NCBI GenBank assembly: GCA_012838745.1
Contig: DUOS01000128.1
Span: 124 to 64,123, forward strand
Direction: 5' to 3'
Origin: Treponema sp.
Lineage (GTDB): Bacteria; Spirochaetota; Spirochaetia; Treponematales; Treponemataceae
Length of the DNA: 64,000 nt
Shown here: positions 916 to 12,482 of the stretch, piece after piece
How the letters are laid out: each line of letters starts with the position of its first letter
Position numbering within the stretch: position 1 is the stretch's first letter
Program-made: the position numbers and the translations under genes
The notes under the pieces: generated by a model
What the model saw: the letters and a program-made list of their open reading frames with translations, nothing else
Database searches by the model: none
Told to the model about the DNA's origin: nothing

Positions 916-2154
916 TTAACGACCACCACGGTTTAAAAGATCTACAATACTTTGGCGCATAATGTTTCTTGCGGGTATTATGACTGCAGCGACGGGAACT
1001 GCCAAAGCGGAGAGAAGGCAGAAAATGCCGGCTTGAACACTGTAACGAATGTATACGTTGATTGACGAGGACATGCCAGGGGCTGGGGGCATATAGATTC
1101 CACCTGATGCGTTTATGATCCAGGCGATTGTGGCCGAAAGGATTGCGCCGGCGATGAGGCCGATGAAACCTGCCATGAGGGCTTCGTTGAAAATACGGAG
1201 GACGACTGTGCTGCGACGGGTGCCCATGCTTAAATAGGTACCAAATTCGCGGGTACGTTCCATTAAAGAAAGGGACATGGTGGTGCCTGTTGCGAAGAAA
1301 ACGATGATGGCGACTATTGCAAGGATGATACGGTAAAATCCTTGGTAATAATTGACCACTTGGCGGAAGTAGGTTGCTTGTTCAAACCAGACTGTAATTT
1401 TTAGGTCCCAGCCTGCGCTTTCTAATTCTGTTTTAAATTGATCGCGGAGTTCGTAGACATGAGAATCGTTTTTAAGTAATACGGCGATTTCATGTACTGA
1501 GTCGACTCCGAAGAGGTCGTAAAAAACTGATTGGGGGACGATTAATACCATGCGGTCAAAATCTTCGGCGTAGCTAGAGATGAGGGATTGGACTTTGAGA
1601 TCTACGGCATTTACCATTGAGTCTTCGCGCACCCCGATAACAGAAACGCTGTCGTTGAGTGAGACGCCAATTTCTTGGGCTAATACGGGAGACATTTGGC
1701 AAGATGCGATATCTTCTAATGTGAGGCCCATACCCCGTTTTGAGGTTGTAAATGTAAATATTGAAGCTTCTCTGTCGGGATCGACTCCCCAAATTTCTAC
1801 TGGAACTCCGTTAACCACTGCCATGGCCCGAGAACGAGGAGCTGCTGTGAGAACGATATCTTTATTTTCAAGATTAGCAATGAGGTCATGCGGGCTTTCA
1901 ATTTCATGGAGGAAGGGTGAGACATCTCGGTCTGTTAGATAGTCGCGTGGGTAGAGTTGAAGGTGTGCATATTGGCTGCGAATTAAGGACTGTTTGAGGC
2001 CCCAATAATTATATTCATAATACCCTCCAACTAAGATGAGGGCGCATATTCCAAGTGTTACACTGGCGATGATGGCCCAAGTTTTACGCCTGTGCGCAAC
2101 GAGGGAATGAAAAGCAATTTTTAGTTCTTGGATCACGGGAGCTCCTTTATTCAT
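916..2154 (-). CDS. ABC transporter permease, FtsX/MacB-LolC type (permease 2)
   Basis: N-terminal LKIAFHSLVAHRRKTW plus a TM helix, a large periplasmic domain and a C-terminal FtsX 3-TM bundle (EFGTYLSMGTRRSTV). The start is moved to ATG 2154, giving an 8-nt ATGAATAA overlap with the upstream gene. Confidence 0.8.
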   Translation of the reverse strand: MNKGAPVIQELKIAFHSLVAHRRKTWAIIASVTLGICALILVGGYYEYNYWGLKQSLIRSQYAHLQLYPRDYLTDRDVSPFLHEIESPHDLIANLENKDIVLTAAPRSRAMAVVNGVPVEIWGVDPDREASIFTFTTSKRGMGLTLEDIASCQMSPVLAQEIGVSLNDSVSVIGVREDSMVNAVDLKVQSLISSYAEDFDRMVLIVPQSVFYDLFGVDSVHEIAVLLKNDSHVYELRDQFKTELESAGWDLKITVWFEQATYFRQVVNYYQGFYRIILAIVAIIVFFATGTTMSLSLMERTREFGTYLSMGTRRSTVVLRIFNEALMAGFIGLIAGAILSATIAWIINASGGIYMPPAPGMSSSINVYIRYSVQAGIFCLLSALAVPVAAVIIPARNIMRQSIVDLLNRGGR

Positions 2155-3481
2155 AGGTTCTAAGTTGCCATTCGGCTGCGAGTTGTAACTGCCAGTTATT
2201 TTCCCACCAGGCCATTTCACCTTTGTCTGCTAGTGAGAAAAGTCCTGTCGTTGTGAGGCCGATTTTGAGACGGTCTATTAGAGAGAGAGATGTGTGAGCT
2301 GAAAGATATATGCCGTCTGGGGCTAAATAAAATGTATTTATGTTGTAGTCGAAAAGGTCTGCTATTTGGCGAGAATTTTGAATCCGAATTCCGGCTGAAT
2401 GAACTGAAGTATTGAAATAAGGAAGAGAGGATGAGTGAGCTCCGCAGAGTCTTTTATATAGCGGTTCATTTTGTGGTGCTTGGTCCACGAGTGCAGAAAG
2501 GTCTGATAATTCAGATTTTATTGAGTTCCAAGTTTTTGAATTATAGCCTGATGATCTAAATCGATATTCGAAGAAAAAAGATAGATTGGCGAAATCTGGT
2601 GCGTAAGAAAGACCAACAGTTGCGTCTACACTTTTAGTTTCTGGGAGTTGGAATGTTGCTTCGGCTGGTAACCCTGGAACAAGGCGATGATCTGCGAAGG
2701 AAACTTCTCCGTAGGGAATGAGGCTGTCACTTATTTGACCTGAGTAATAGGCCCCAGCAGTATTGCCTGTGATGGTTTGGCCACCATAATAATAGATGAG
2801 CCCAAAACGATGGGTGCCGAGAGTGTAGACTGTGTGGAAGAGAACCACTGGGTTTGATTCGCTGTTGGCTGAAAAGTCTTCGCCTGGCGCCCAGGAAAGT
2901 GCTGGGGAAAACCAGATTTCTGCAAAGATGTTGTTTTTCCCAAAGGAAGCACCGGTCATCCATAAACCTTCTTGTTCGGCGCTTGCGGTTTTTAAGTCTT
3001 TCGCCAGGCAGTCCTTCGCTAGGAAGTCGAGAACCGGGAAGATAACTGCAGGCCCCTGTGTGACGAGAGTTTTGCCAGCAAAAAAGCGTATTCCAACTTC
3101 GTGGATGTTGACTGCAAGTAACGCTTCGTTAAGAGCGAATGCTGGATTGCCTTGCAATCTGCGATTTTCTTCGCTACAAGGTTCTGCATGCTGAAGCCAA
3201 TTCATAGTGCCCTCGGCTGTGATTGTGCAGCGGTTTGAAAACCCGAGATACCAATCTAAGCTTGCGCTCATCTGAGTCTCCCATTCACTTAACTTTTGCC
3301 AATTATCAGTATTGGTAGGATTGTCTTCCCGAATACCATGGAGGTTTACTTCTTGGTGAATGTTCAGCCCCAGTTCTTGAGAAATACTATCTGAAATATC
3401 AAAGGCCCATAGTGGAGTTCGACCACATAAGATGAGAGACATAAAACAAACTACATGAAGGCTGCAGTTTTTAGCGAACAT
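2147..3481 (-). CDS. Secreted protein, probable outer-membrane beta-barrel (porin-like), unknown family
   Basis: It has an N-terminal signal-like segment, alternating aromatic/Gly-rich strands (GLIYYYGGQ, LSFFFEYRF) and an amphipathic C-terminal strand. No family was recognised. Confidence 0.4.
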   Translation of the reverse strand: MFAKNCSLHVVCFMSLILCGRTPLWAFDISDSISQELGLNIHQEVNLHGIREDNPTNTDNWQKLSEWETQMSASLDWYLGFSNRCTITAEGTMNWLQHAEPCSEENRRLQGNPAFALNEALLAVNIHEVGIRFFAGKTLVTQGPAVIFPVLDFLAKDCLAKDLKTASAEQEGLWMTGASFGKNNIFAEIWFSPALSWAPGEDFSANSESNPVVLFHTVYTLGTHRFGLIYYYGGQTITGNTAGAYYSGQISDSLIPYGEVSFADHRLVPGLPAEATFQLPETKSVDATVGLSYAPDFANLSFFFEYRFRSSGYNSKTWNSIKSELSDLSALVDQAPQNEPLYKRLCGAHSSSLPYFNTSVHSAGIRIQNSRQIADLFDYNINTFYLAPDGIYLSAHTSLSLIDRLKIGLTTTGLFSLADKGEMAWWENNWQLQLAAEWQLRTYE

Positions 3482-4220
3482 GTTTAATCGCTTCTACTGT
3501 AAAGCTTGAATCTGGGTAGGTGTCAGTGCTGAAATTATCAAGAAGAACTGTACTCGTTTCTCCCGTGCTGCTGTCTTTAATAGTGAAGGCAGTAAGAAGA
3601 TCTTTTCCCTGTATGTTTCTGAAACCGTCGTAGATAATAGTTTTCATGAGTCTGCCGCTCGAGCCTTTACAGTCGGCTTGGATTGGTTTGCCGTCAGTGG
3701 CGTTTACGGTAAGATCGATTAAGTCGTAGGTAGCCCCTGCATTGGGCAGACCCTTTAATTCAAGATGGTATACAGCATCAGTTTTCTCTATGTTTTCGAT
3801 TGAATACATTCCGGCGAATGCTATGCGAGTTATATCTCCAGCAGAGGCCTGCCCGAACAACATTTCGCGAGGAGTTATTCTGATAGGAGACATCATGCCT
3901 TGGTCATAAATAAAGAAAGAATTTTGTAAGGTCAACACTATTCGACGCCGGTATTTTTTTGGCTCCATATATCTGACGATACTCGTGTCCTTATTTTCAT
4001 TTGAAAGAGATACACGCATGAGAGACTTTGTGCCGTTATTTTCCGTAACGGCAAAATCAAATGAAAAACCAGATGAAGAAAATTGCCGAAAAGAATCTAC
4101 TTTTTTAAGAATGGCTTTTCCGTCAAGAGAAGGTGGAGCTTGTGCGAAAAGATTGAGGCCAAGGGTAGAGATGGCACAAAGCAGGATGGTTATCGCTCGT
4201 ATTTTTTTTCGTACATTCAT
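3471..4220 (-). CDS. LolA-like outer-membrane lipoprotein-sorting protein
   Basis: It has a signal peptide (MNVRKKIRAITILLCAISTLGLNLFAQ). The pattern SPIRITPREMLFGQASAGDITR ... YHLELKG ... resembles the LolA-like family usually encoded next to FtsX-type ABC transporters. Confidence 0.55.
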   Translation of the reverse strand: MNVRKKIRAITILLCAISTLGLNLFAQAPPSLDGKAILKKVDSFRQFSSSGFSFDFAVTENNGTKSLMRVSLSNENKDTSIVRYMEPKKYRRRIVLTLQNSFFIYDQGMMSPIRITPREMLFGQASAGDITRIAFAGMYSIENIEKTDAVYHLELKGLPNAGATYDLIDLTVNATDGKPIQADCKGSSGRLMKTIIYDGFRNIQGKDLLTAFTIKDSSTGETSTVLLDNFSTDTYPDSSFTVEAIKHVR

Positions 4221-12091: not shown

Positions 12092-12438
12092 TACGCTTCT
12101 CCTATCAACATATCAAGGATTGTTTTGGTATTTTTCCATTCCAAACGCAAACACAAACACAATTCTTTCCCTACATCGGTAATCGAATAATATTTCCGCC
12201 GCCCACCCTTACTCTCCTCTCCCCAATATCCCTTAATATAATCTAACTTTTCAAGGCGCCGAAACGCAGAATATAACGACGGCTCTTTGAGCTCATACAT
12301 CGAACTAGTACGAGAAAGTACCGTTTTATAGACTTCATACCCGTACATATCCTTATCCATCAGAAGATTAAGGATAATTGCATCAATGTGCCCTCGTATC
12401 ATGTCTTTACTTATTTCAATTCGTTTTGTTTGTGTCAT
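12091..12438 (-). CDS. PadR-family transcriptional regulator
   Basis: Winged-helix signature GHIDAIILNLLMDKDMYGYEVYKTV...LYSAFRRLEKLDYIKGYWGEE...GGRRKYYSITDVGKE. Confidence 0.85.
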   Translation of the reverse strand: MTQTKRIEISKDMIRGHIDAIILNLLMDKDMYGYEVYKTVLSRTSSMYELKEPSLYSAFRRLEKLDYIKGYWGEESKGGRRKYYSITDVGKELCLCLRLEWKNTKTILDMLIGEA

Positions 12439-12482
12439 AGTACTATGACTAACATAGTAATCGATTTATTTGAGATGTCAAT
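12434..12482 (-). promoter_or_regulatory. Sigma70-like promoter plus a perfect 16-bp palindrome overlapping the padR start codon
   Basis: Minus strand: TTGACA (12477-12482), 17 nt, TACTAT (12454-12459). The palindrome GTCATAGTACTATGAC (12434-12449) contains the ATG. Confidence 0.5.

Follow-up and report, generated by a model that had tools for sequence, protein, structure and literature searches.

The DNA analysed here is a window of 64,000 nucleotides (nt) from a metagenome-assembled genome (MAG) of Treponema sp. (locus tags GXZ47_), to which all positions refer. It carries eleven consecutive minus-strand open reading frames (ORFs), running from position 12438 down to 916 in the ORF list of the window, which together encode a PadR-type regulator with a membrane partner, an Omp85-like protein with a periplasmic TPR partner and a membrane-anchored scaffold, a polyferredoxin, and an ABC exporter with a secreted LolA-fold protein. 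The promoter region and the genes are given below in the order of transcription, each with the evidence on which its assignment rests (aa, amino acids; TM, transmembrane).

12434..12481, minus strand: promoter and putative PadR operator (sigma-70-like match, palindromes)
12091..12438, minus strand: PadR-family winged-helix repressor, 115 aa (PF03551)
11432..12091, minus strand: HAAS/perm_prefix_1 membrane protein, 219 aa (NF038403 and TM segments)
10158..11435, minus strand: Omp85-superfamily outer-membrane barrel, 425 aa (AlphaFold2 and Foldseek)
9519..10136, minus strand: secreted periplasmic TPR-like protein, hereafter TPR205, 205 aa (signal peptide, TPR matches of orthologues)
8354..9529, minus strand: NapH/MauN-superfamily membrane polyferredoxin, 391 aa (Fer4_5, NapH models, motifs)
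6225..8357, minus strand: inner-membrane-anchored periplasmic scaffold, hereafter Gdx/TPR, 710 aa (PF09985, AlphaFold2)
5507..6232, minus strand: ABC ATPase of the LolD/MacB/DevA type, 241 aa (PF00005)
4275..5510, minus strand: FtsX-type (type VII ABC) permease A, 411 aa from M19 (PF02687)
3471..4220, minus strand: secreted LolA-fold protein, 249 aa (PF17131, PDB 3BUU)
2147..3481, minus strand: orphan secreted protein, 444 aa (signal peptide, beta-amphipathic profile)
916..2154, minus strand: FtsX-type permease B, 412 aa from M23 (PF02687)

Recomputation of the ten junctions, from padR to the gene of permease B, gave -1, -4, +21, -11, -4, -8, -4, +54, -11 and -8 nt, the same tight packing of translationally coupled genes that the first-pass annotation of this DNA had described as overlaps of 1–11 nt with one 21-nt and one 54-nt gap. 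The start codons of the two FtsX genes were placed at M19 of the longest ORF (position 5510) for permease A and at M23 (position 2154) for permease B, and the 4-nt and 8-nt overlaps at these genes hinge on that choice. The overlaps between the NapH-like and Gdx/TPR genes (-4), between the Gdx/TPR and ATPase genes (-8) and between the LolA-like and 444-aa genes (-11) are repeated in the orthologous loci L001, L004 and L051. Because of the 11-nt overlap, the 444-aa start of the orphan protein is favoured over the NCBI-annotated 431-aa start (P0054).

The outer-membrane module comprises the Omp85-like protein and TPR205, in most cases the Gdx/TPR protein as well, and the NapH-like polyferredoxin as an optional member. 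The Omp85-like protein has a signal peptide, and its AlphaFold2 model (27 homologues; pLDDT 83.4, pTM 0.77) shows a single POTRA domain, in the form of a beta-alpha-alpha-beta-beta N-terminal domain, and a barrel of about 16 strands, for which Foldseek returned BamA/TamA at E 7.5e-12 to 1e-10 and TM-scores of 0.5–0.6. The window protein has no Pfam match to PF01103/PF07244, and PDB sequence and profile searches with it found nothing; among its 27 homologues, weak POTRA matches occur in ten, weak Omp85 matches in five and a weak ShlB match in one. The residues R315-x-G317-Y318 and D385/G388/G390/R392 are invariant in the family and resemble, in our reading, the loop-6 VRGY and strand-13 motifs of Omp85 proteins. 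As far as the predicted fold can tell, the family is a divergent Omp85 subfamily that has no sequence-level annotation. TPR205 likewise carries a signal peptide; TPR_14 is weakly matched in 11 of 12 orthologues, the family profile matches consensus-TPR structures, and no conserved lipobox cysteine was found in the orthologues. In the Gdx/TPR protein, a single TM helix at the N terminus is combined with a Glucodextran_C beta-sandwich and an extended TPR superhelix. The Glucodextran_C domain (PF09985; E 2.4e-16, 60.4 bits vs a cutoff of 22, residues 55–259) has an invariant DPxGDDxGxG motif, and AlphaFold2 (pLDDT 81.8) modelled a beta-sandwich in this region. Foldseek retrieved TPR superhelices only, the family profile weakly matched glucodextranase 1UG9, and a single-sequence PDB search with the protein found nothing. 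Relatives with the Gdx/TPR architecture that come from named genomes all belong to Spirochaetota MAGs.

The exporter module, made up of the ATPase, the two FtsX permeases, the LolA-fold protein and the 444-aa protein, follows a type VII ABC plan. The ATPase matches PF00005 (E 1.2e-32) and has the LolD model TIGR02211 as its best NCBIfam match (215.5 bits vs a cutoff of 307.75), with a DevA-type glycolipid exporter ATPase among its top matches (184 bits); its orthologues in orthologous clusters are 69–82% identical. Permease A (PF02687, E 2e-9) has four TM segments and a periplasmic loop of about 235 aa, and permease B (PF02687, E 2.8e-16) has orthologues that match MacB_PCD, its nearest solved relatives being YtrF, Spr0695, MacB and LolC, all of them weak matches. 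The two permeases are 24% identical at full length over 404 aligned columns, which makes them paralogues, and both show the four-TM topology with a large periplasmic loop between TM1 and TM2 that defines type VII ABC permeases. The LolC/E model TIGR02212 scored 33.4 bits (cutoff 362.45). The LolA-like protein carries a signal peptide and matches PF17131 (LolA_like, renamed TP_0789-like; E 2.9e-21, 76.4 bits vs a cutoff of 30) and PDB 3BUU (NE2245, LolA superfamily; E 4.2e-21); Pfam LolA itself was not among the matches reported for this carrier. Literature searches on TP0789, on PF17131/LolA_like and on Glucodextran_C/PF09985 retrieved no functional study, and a search on LolA-like proteins with FtsX found nothing.

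The 444-aa protein encoded between the LolA-like protein and permease B belongs to an orphan secreted family that, to judge from the searches made, has no sequence-level annotation. It has a signal peptide and a beta-amphipathic score of 0.60, compared with 0.67 for the Omp85 control and 0.39–0.40 for the TPR controls, and is probably an outer-membrane beta-barrel. The single sequence has no Pfam or NCBIfam match, none of 14 family members matched any Pfam family at E <= 10, DUF1302 (PF06980) included, and a PDB search with the 14-member profile found nothing. In hhalign comparisons, probabilities stayed below 3% against the Omp85 family and against the secreted proteins beside the LolA_like genes of two related loci (L005 and L011, described below). 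Only 23 representative clusters of this family exist among 1.84 billion proteins, and the genomic contexts seen for it are confined to one of the two gene-cluster architectures described below (architecture I). Ten of the eleven gene assignments of the first-pass annotation are therefore borne out by Pfam and NCBIfam matches, membrane topology, signal peptides, TPR_14 matches in orthologues, PDB 3BUU and the AlphaFold2 and Foldseek results, including those of the Omp85-like barrel with its single POTRA domain, the TPR-like protein, the membrane-anchored glucodextranase-C-like/TPR protein, the ATPase, both FtsX permeases and the LolA-like protein, but the eleventh, a porin-like barrel for the 444-aa protein, is unproven for a family with neither a Pfam nor a PDB match.

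The polyferredoxin assignment, including the two CxxxCP and two 4Fe-4S motifs reported in the first pass, can be read directly in the 391-aa sequence, which contains CGWVCP and CSAYCP (two CX3CP motifs) as well as CNHCMKCVEAC and CAFCGECIDIC (two [4Fe-4S] motifs of the CxxCxxCxxxC form). The protein matches Fer4_5 (E 2.2e-11) and, at 88 bits (E ~5e-25) and far under cutoffs of 213–234, the NapH/MauN models, and it has about eight TM segments. The NapH-like gene is absent from the ABC-containing orthologous clusters L033, L038/L007, L006, L034 and L032, and redox coupling is for that reason regarded as accessory to the exporter rather than part of its core: of the redox coupling raised in the first pass the polyferredoxin is real, but a core role for it does not hold. 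In related loci that lack the ABC genes, and only there, a DsbD_2 gene is found (L003:8183-8839, L005:8138-8824, L040:6535-7224, L042, L044, L045 and L049). Its product has the invariant residues Cys21-x3-Cys25-x-Pro (CxxxCxP) in TM1, Cys93 and His138-x-Cys140-Pro (HxCP), and its CX3C(x)P motif is reminiscent of the CX3CP motifs in the neighbouring NapH-like protein. Together, the two sequences hint at a thiol relay from ferredoxin to the periplasm; a literature search on Fer4_5 with DsbD_2 found no functional study. TPR205 contains an invariant cysteine, C183, at a TPR small-residue position, which was considered as a redox handle and rejected because small residues are expected at that position and the cysteine is equally invariant in clusters with neither NapH nor DsbD_2.

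At the head of the operon, padR is followed by the gene of the 219-aa membrane protein, whose start overlaps the padR stop by 1 nt. PadR lies above the Pfam gathering score for PF03551 (E 1.7e-18, 66.8 bits vs a cutoff of 27), has TIGR03433 padR_acidobact as its best NCBIfam match, below cutoff, and is 60–68% identical to its orthologues in PadR-headed loci. The membrane protein matches NF038403 perm_prefix_1 at residues 11–64 (46.3 bits vs a cutoff of 30) and consists of a cytoplasmic helical N-terminal domain of about 70 aa and three to four TM segments; this HAAS/perm_prefix_1 protein is a putative signal-sensing partner of PadR. The first-pass annotation had placed an unusual mix of components under a PadR/membrane-sensor pair. 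The pair is indeed present, but it is not unusual, as it corresponds to the published dyad of HAAS and a PadR-like winged helix-turn-helix protein, which is known to accompany, or to be fused to, FtsX/MacB-PCD permeases (PMC11237479; NF038403) and for which a role in membrane-stress signalling, in place of two-component systems, has been proposed (PMC11237479; Ravi et al., mSystems 2024).

The padR promoter, with its -35 box TTGACA (12481–12476) and its -10 box TACTAT (12459–12454), is the best sigma-70-like match between positions 400 and 13400 (10 of 12 positions). It is accompanied by two ATAGTACTAT-type palindromes, one over the -10 box and the other over the padR ATG, and its leader is very short. 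The corresponding footprint reads TTGACA, 16–17 nt, ATAGTACTAT (containing the -10 TACTAT), 7 nt and ATA(G/A)TACTATG, in which ATG is the padR start in most loci, and the layout is kept upstream of padR in the window and in nine other loci (L003, L005, L008, L011, L039, L040, L041, L050 and L051), among which PadR identity is only 60–68%. L008 is an exception in that its second palindrome lies upstream of a longer, normal leader. The conserved promoter/operator layout argues for autorepression by PadR and suggests a padR mRNA that is near-leaderless or leaderless, and the phylogenetic footprint of this putative PadR operator is, on sequence comparison, an element new here. In most loci the padR start lies inside the second palindrome, about 16 nt past the -10 box and without a Shine-Dalgarno sequence (12436–12460 in the window, and orthologues).

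Related loci were gathered with the 710-aa, Omp85-like and 444-aa families as probes, which yielded about 25 distinct loci, and all those with an organism name come from Spirochaetota MAGs. The identical eleven-gene order occurs in the metagenomic loci L051/L052, where the Omp85-like protein is 51% identical, and L050 has the first six genes, at 62% identity, on a contig that stops after them. The cluster is thus conserved outside this genome, in full or as sub-arrangements, and the proposal of a co-directional unit whose parts span cytoplasm, inner membrane, periplasm and outer membrane holds on both the annotations and this conservation. The TPR205 gene stands directly after the Omp85-like gene in every one of the related loci. 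Two architectures can be distinguished. Architecture I has the order Omp85-TPR-[NapH-like]-[Gdx/TPR]-ABC-FtsX-LolA-like-444aa-FtsX, the bracketed genes being optional; it includes the NapH-like gene in the window, L001, L004/L035 and L051, lacks it in L033, L038/L007, L006 and L034, and lacks both NapH and Gdx in L032. PadR is absent from L001, L004, L032 to L034 and L006. Architecture II, with the order PadR-HAAS-Omp85-TPR-DsbD_2-NapH-Gdx(short), has no ABC genes in the operon and was found in L003, L005, L008, L011, L012, L039, L040 and L041, while L042 and L045/46 carry its body without PadR.

The ABC-FtsX-LolA-like-444aa-FtsX block always adjoins the Omp85-TPR pair (L001, L004/L035, L006, L032, L033, L034, L038 and L051). 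Across the loci, the Omp85/TPR/Gdx/redox block can also occur by itself. The exporter block, in turn, is dependent on the Omp85/TPR pair, and the NapH-like protein and PadR are accessories. The single fused machine envisaged in the first pass therefore survives as a conserved unit, but not as an indivisible one, since it is a mosaic of modules that are separable across loci. L005 and L011 have no ABC block in the operon, but a divergently transcribed LolA_like exporter lies next door in each: TetR-MMPL-LolA_like and a secreted protein in L005 (1-5078, minus strand), and FtsX/MacB_PCD-LolA_like-ABC and a secreted protein in L011 (1-3779, minus strand), both divergent from the PadR-headed operon. 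The secreted proteins of these two exporters have no Pfam match and no detectable similarity to the 444-aa family. The loci L001, L032 and L033 occupy the same chromosomal site, between pfkB and earP-efp. They differ in what is present there: L001 has NapH and Gdx, L033 has Gdx without NapH, and L032 has neither, a pattern that points to stepwise gain or loss of accessory genes in place. Over the cluster as a whole, the ABC and FtsX_b genes are conserved at 60–82% identity, compared with 37–57% for genes 3–6; of 185,579 species-level genomes, only about 10 contain the Gdx and 444-aa marker families, and the cluster occupies different chromosomal sites in different genomes.

In the Treponema genome the operon lies on a 12.4-kb segment bracketed by direct repeats of about 185 nt, at 252–431 and 12643–12823, which share 94% identity over 113 nt and 81% over 73 nt and duplicate the junction between the 3' end of a DUF2141 gene and the 5' end of an HI0933-like flavoprotein gene. 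The features of this setting are:

12643..12823, no strand assigned: upstream copy of the ~185-nt repeat, with the intact DUF2141 3' end and a truncated 5' copy of the HI0933-like flavoprotein gene
12505..12550, no strand assigned: copy of a nested 46-nt direct repeat upstream of the padR promoter
759..804, no strand assigned: copy of the nested 46-nt direct repeat downstream of the last operon gene
439..698, minus strand: degenerate hicA/hicB toxin-antitoxin remnant, inside the bracketed segment
252..431, no strand assigned: downstream copy of the ~185-nt repeat, with a degenerate DUF2141 3' fragment and the start of the real HI0933-like flavoprotein gene

The 25-nt core of the 46-nt repeat occurs exactly twice in the window, with an expectation of 0. 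Of the toxin-antitoxin remnant, the hicA stub is a 17-codon ORF (MKSAEIMKLLKEDGWFG*) that we take to be HicA-like, and the hicB part is a 64-aa ORF whose match to HicB_lk_antitox covers only positions 1–38 of 123 (E 2e-15). The sequence arrangement would fit the Campbell-type integration of a circular intermediate in which a homologous junction was present. Metagenome contigs contained no match to a 30-mer taken from the flanking repeat, and neither an empty site nor a donor was found there. An intact VapBC pair lies near the PadR-headed cluster of L050. Base composition changes along the segment: GC content is 0.37–0.41 with a negative plus-strand GC skew over about 6–12 kb, and 0.44–0.47 with a positive skew over about 1–4 kb, the flanks being at about 0.45. 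GC content and GC skew thus shift at about 5 kb, inside the operon, which may reflect a mosaic origin or merely differing protein composition. A hairpin 3' of the last operon gene did not reach significance (z = -1.36). Upstream of the operon lie genes for a secreted DUF2141 protein (12744–13229), a GH1 beta-glucosidase (13305–14675) and a divergent 872-aa multi-TPR protein (15123–17741) with weak TPR_Slam, TPR_CcmH_CycH and IBR-like matches; no link between these neighbours and the operon was seen in other genomes. The only Rfam/ARAGORN matches in the window are tRNA-Trp(CCA) and tRNA-Thr(GGU), on the minus strand at 61672–61746 and 62035–62107.

We tentatively interpret the cluster as a modular envelope-spanning system, so far found only in Spirochaetota, for Lol-like trafficking of amphiphilic envelope cargo with a redox accessory, a reading that we regard as possible rather than probable. 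It is preferred because the permeases form a LolC/LolE-like paralogue pair, because LolD is the best model for the ATPase, and because L005 and L011 pair the PadR-headed operon with other LolA_like exporters; it also has a precedent in systems that combine a LolA-superfamily protein with an adjacent outer-membrane protein and an exporter (bioRxiv 10.1101/072470; PMC6394551). In the proposed mechanism, PadR would repress its own operon at the ATAGTACTAT palindromes until the HAAS protein, on sensing a lipophilic or envelope signal, causes its release. The FtsX heterodimer would then, by ATP-driven mechanotransmission, pull an amphiphilic cargo, either a lipoprotein or a (glyco)lipid, from the outer leaflet of the inner membrane, and the LolA-fold protein would shield the acyl or other hydrophobic part of the cargo across the periplasm and hand it to the 444-aa outer-membrane protein. 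The Omp85/TPR pair, tied to the inner membrane through the Gdx/TPR scaffold, would insert or translocate the cargo or its receptor at the outer membrane, or would assist in this, and the NapH-like protein, with DsbD_2 in architecture II, would supply reducing equivalents as an optional add-on and not as the driver of transport.

Several observations weigh against this reading. The single-transcript status of the eleven genes is deduced from their overlaps only, and a promoter and terminator scan of positions 400–13400 returned counts equal to the shuffled expectation and so gives no evidence either way on internal signals. The barrel nature of the 444-aa protein, the proposed recipient of the cargo, is unproven. 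Architecture II mostly has no exporter within 10 kb (L003, L008 and L045), and because it mostly stands alone, the two large modules can work independently. No conserved cargo gene was found flanking the clusters in the examined loci. Finally, the canonical Lol pathway was tried as an identification and rejected, with cutoffs missed widely by both LolD (215.5 vs 307.75) and LolC/E (33.4 vs 362.45) and a carrier of family PF17131.

An alternative that we consider fairly unlikely is inducible detoxification or efflux, in which PadR and the HAAS protein would sense a lipophilic or phenolic toxin or an antimicrobial peptide and a MacB-type ABC transporter would expel it, the LolA-fold and 444-aa proteins replacing the duct of membrane-fusion protein (MFP) and TolC, a substitution that has been suggested for DUF1329/DUF1302 with RND pumps. 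PadR regulators classically control phenolic-acid and multidrug responses, and the FtsX permeases of the operon are no closer to LolC than to YtrF, Spr0695 and MacB. The link of the HAAS-PadR dyad to envelope-stress systems (PMC11237479) would suit such a role, as would AmeABCD, which exports hydrophobic compounds with a LolA-superfamily protein (PMC6394551), and the pairing of the PadR operon of L005 with a TetR-MMPL-LolA_like cluster. However, efflux leaves the universally linked Omp85/TPR pair and the Gdx/TPR scaffold unexplained, and with them the PadR-headed architecture that has no transporter; moreover, there is no MFP or TolC, and most ABC-containing clusters lack PadR.

The modularity itself raises the question of whether two separate systems share one promoter, namely an Omp85-TPR-Gdx unit, with or without DsbD_2 and NapH, that builds or maintains the outer membrane and has a periplasmic reducing branch of its own, and an independent ABC/LolA-like exporter; the eleven genes would then be an operon fusion. 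The architecture without ABC genes in L003, L008, L012, L039, L040, L042 and L045, the presence in L032 of the ABC genes and Omp85-TPR without Gdx and NapH, the shift in GC skew and base composition near 5 kb, inside the operon, and the different conservation of ABC/FtsX_b (60–82%) and genes 3–6 (37–57%) all speak for such a division. Nevertheless, the Omp85-TPR pair adjoins the ABC block of this family wherever that block was seen, the 444-aa proteins occur in these clusters only, the 8-nt overlap of the Gdx and ABC genes is conserved, and in L005 and L011 the pairing is established anew with other LolA_like exporters. We hold this explanation, too, to be fairly unlikely.

A more far-reaching reading concerns the outer-membrane module: the universally linked core of Omp85, TPR205 and Gdx/TPR, often with DsbD_2 as a thiol shuttle and a NapH-type protein, would be a previously unrecognised trans-envelope apparatus in which cytoplasmic electrons at the ferredoxin level pass through the inner membrane to an Omp85-centred complex at the outer membrane, with the LolA-like ABC exporter plugged in. 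We think this doubtful; were it true, reductive chemistry on lipidated cargo in the periplasm or outer membrane would be mechanistically coupled to export. It is improbable, in our estimate, that the cluster is a self-contained system for outer-membrane protein assembly, with Omp85/TPR as a BamA/BamD-like insertase for the 444-aa protein as its client, or else a TPR-barrel exporter of exopolysaccharide or glycolipid with a glycan-binding-like Gdx domain. The Omp85 fold with an adjacent TPR protein does mirror BamA/BamD, and the carbohydrate-module type of the Gdx domain and the DevA-type ATPase match (184 bits) would suit a glycan or glycolipid substrate, but the architecture without ABC genes keeps Omp85/TPR without the 444-aa client, no glycosyltransferase or synthase was found in or near the examined clusters, TPR205 is not a lipoprotein, and the exopolysaccharide barrels known to us are not Omp85 proteins. 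That the operon is the housekeeping Lol lipoprotein pathway (LolCDE and LolA) of this spirochaete is very improbable indeed, since for all its LolD-best ATPase, LolC/LolE/LolD subunit plan and LolA-fold protein, its scores fall far short (LolD 215 vs 308, LolC/E 33 vs 362), its carrier matches PF17131 with no Pfam LolA match reported, its Gdx and 444-aa markers occur in only about 10 of 185,579 species-level genomes, and it is bracketed by direct repeats with a toxin-antitoxin remnant and occupies different chromosomal sites across genomes.

Under the preferred reading of Lol-like trafficking, the operon would be a candidate route for amphiphilic material to the spirochaete outer membrane, combining a Lol-like extractor, a LolA-fold carrier and an Omp85/TPR pair, and would exemplify the recruitment of an Omp85 protein into accessory, stress-regulated export. 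The outer membrane of spirochaetes abounds in lipoproteins and glycolipids and, in many lineages, contains no lipopolysaccharide. How it is built and supplied is poorly understood, and no LolB is known from spirochaetes. The loci also form a natural experiment in modularity, in that NapH, DsbD_2, Gdx and PadR are each present in some and absent from others. All identified carriers are metagenomic assemblies with no cultured isolate among them, and tests therefore need heterologous systems.

The first-pass statement that no characterised pathway matches the cluster is upheld by checks against NCBIfam, PADLOC and the literature, in which the Lol, MacAB-TolC, BAM, NapGH and two-partner secretion systems each failed as an identification. 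NCBIfam has no model for the Omp85-like barrel, TPR205, Gdx/TPR or the 444-aa protein, and no functional study of the marker families turned up in the literature searches. The cluster is new as a combination, whereas its regulator type, its type VII ABC transporter with a LolA-fold carrier and its Omp85 protein with a TPR partner are of known kinds. The regulatory head resembles the HAAS-PadR dyad and the PadR/ADOP pairs of Acidobacteria (TIGR03433/TIGR03434, NF038403) in that a standalone PadR is followed by a membrane protein with a perm_prefix_1 N-terminal helical domain, and it shares the described link of the dyad to FtsX/MacB-PCD permeases (PMC11237479). It differs in that the HAAS domain of the window is carried by a small protein with three to four TM segments that is not fused to a permease, and in that the regulated operon is far larger. 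Moreover, a GxP kink is conserved in the third helix of the HAAS domain (PMC11237479), but it is not evident in the window protein, the only one inspected for it, which reads LGDLSEL, without proline, at the expected place.

As in the NapH/MauN/NosR/CcoG polyferredoxins, two CX3CP motifs of the NapH-like protein follow TM helices, and its C-terminal part carries two [4Fe-4S] motifs. NapGH was nevertheless rejected as its identity: the protein scores 88 bits against cutoffs of 213–234, has about eight TM segments rather than four and has no NapG, NapA or Nos partners, and its gene is dispensable in orthologous clusters; nap genes were found in none of the examined loci. Two-partner secretion, which pairs a TpsB protein with two POTRA domains and a TpsA protein, was rejected in view of the single POTRA domain, the weak ShlB match in only one of 27 homologues and the lack of a TpsA-like gene in the loci. 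As for defence systems, PADLOC gave only weak, non-informative matches to the LolE-type TM region of a CARF fusion model on the two FtsX permeases, and the cluster was rejected as a known defence system.

Closer likenesses exist for the exporter and the outer-membrane module. With LolCDE-LolA(-LolB), the operon shares one ATPase gene next to two paralogous FtsX permease genes (24% identity), a secreted LolA-fold protein and LolD as the best ATPase model; unlike that pathway, it has an orphan 444-aa protein and an Omp85/TPR pair instead of LolB, and it is a rare accessory cassette rather than a housekeeping locus. What the operon has in common with MacAB-TolC and DevBCA is a MacB/DevA-like ATPase and FtsX permeases whose periplasmic domain is large (MacB_PCD matches in orthologues). 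In contrast to these systems, the window operon encodes neither a membrane-fusion protein nor a TolC-family duct, and MacAB-TolC was rejected on the finding that none of the 11 proteins contains an HlyD/MFP or OEP domain, a statement whose scope is the operon itself. The 16-strand Omp85 barrel with POTRA and the adjacent TPR partner of about 200 aa recall BamA/TamA and BamD, respectively. However, there is one POTRA domain as against five in BamA or three in TamA, no PF01103 match is found, and the genes lie in an accessory operon with transporter and redox genes; the BAM complex was rejected on the single POTRA domain and a TPR partner that is not a lipoprotein.

A further relationship is seen with clusters that encode DUF1329 (LolA superfamily), DUF1302 and an RND exporter. 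These three were found to show cofitness (bioRxiv 10.1101/072470), and AmeABCD of Castellaniella defragrans is an efflux system for hydrophobic compounds with a LolA-superfamily protein and a putative outer-membrane protein (PMC6394551). In such clusters (AmeABCD; Sama_1588-1591), as in the window, a periplasmic LolA-superfamily protein is encoded beside a putative outer-membrane protein and an inner-membrane exporter, and they have been proposed to move hydrophobic, cell-envelope or cell-wall material (bioRxiv 10.1101/072470; PMC6394551); an MMPL version stands beside the PadR operon in L005. The window operon differs from them in that its energiser is a type VII ABC transporter and not an RND protein, its 444-aa protein has no DUF1302 match and the BNR protein is absent, and it adds Omp85, TPR proteins and a polyferredoxin. 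By analogy, the nearest functional counterparts would be the DUF1329/DUF1302/RND clusters for genes 7–11 and BamA/BamD for genes 3–4.

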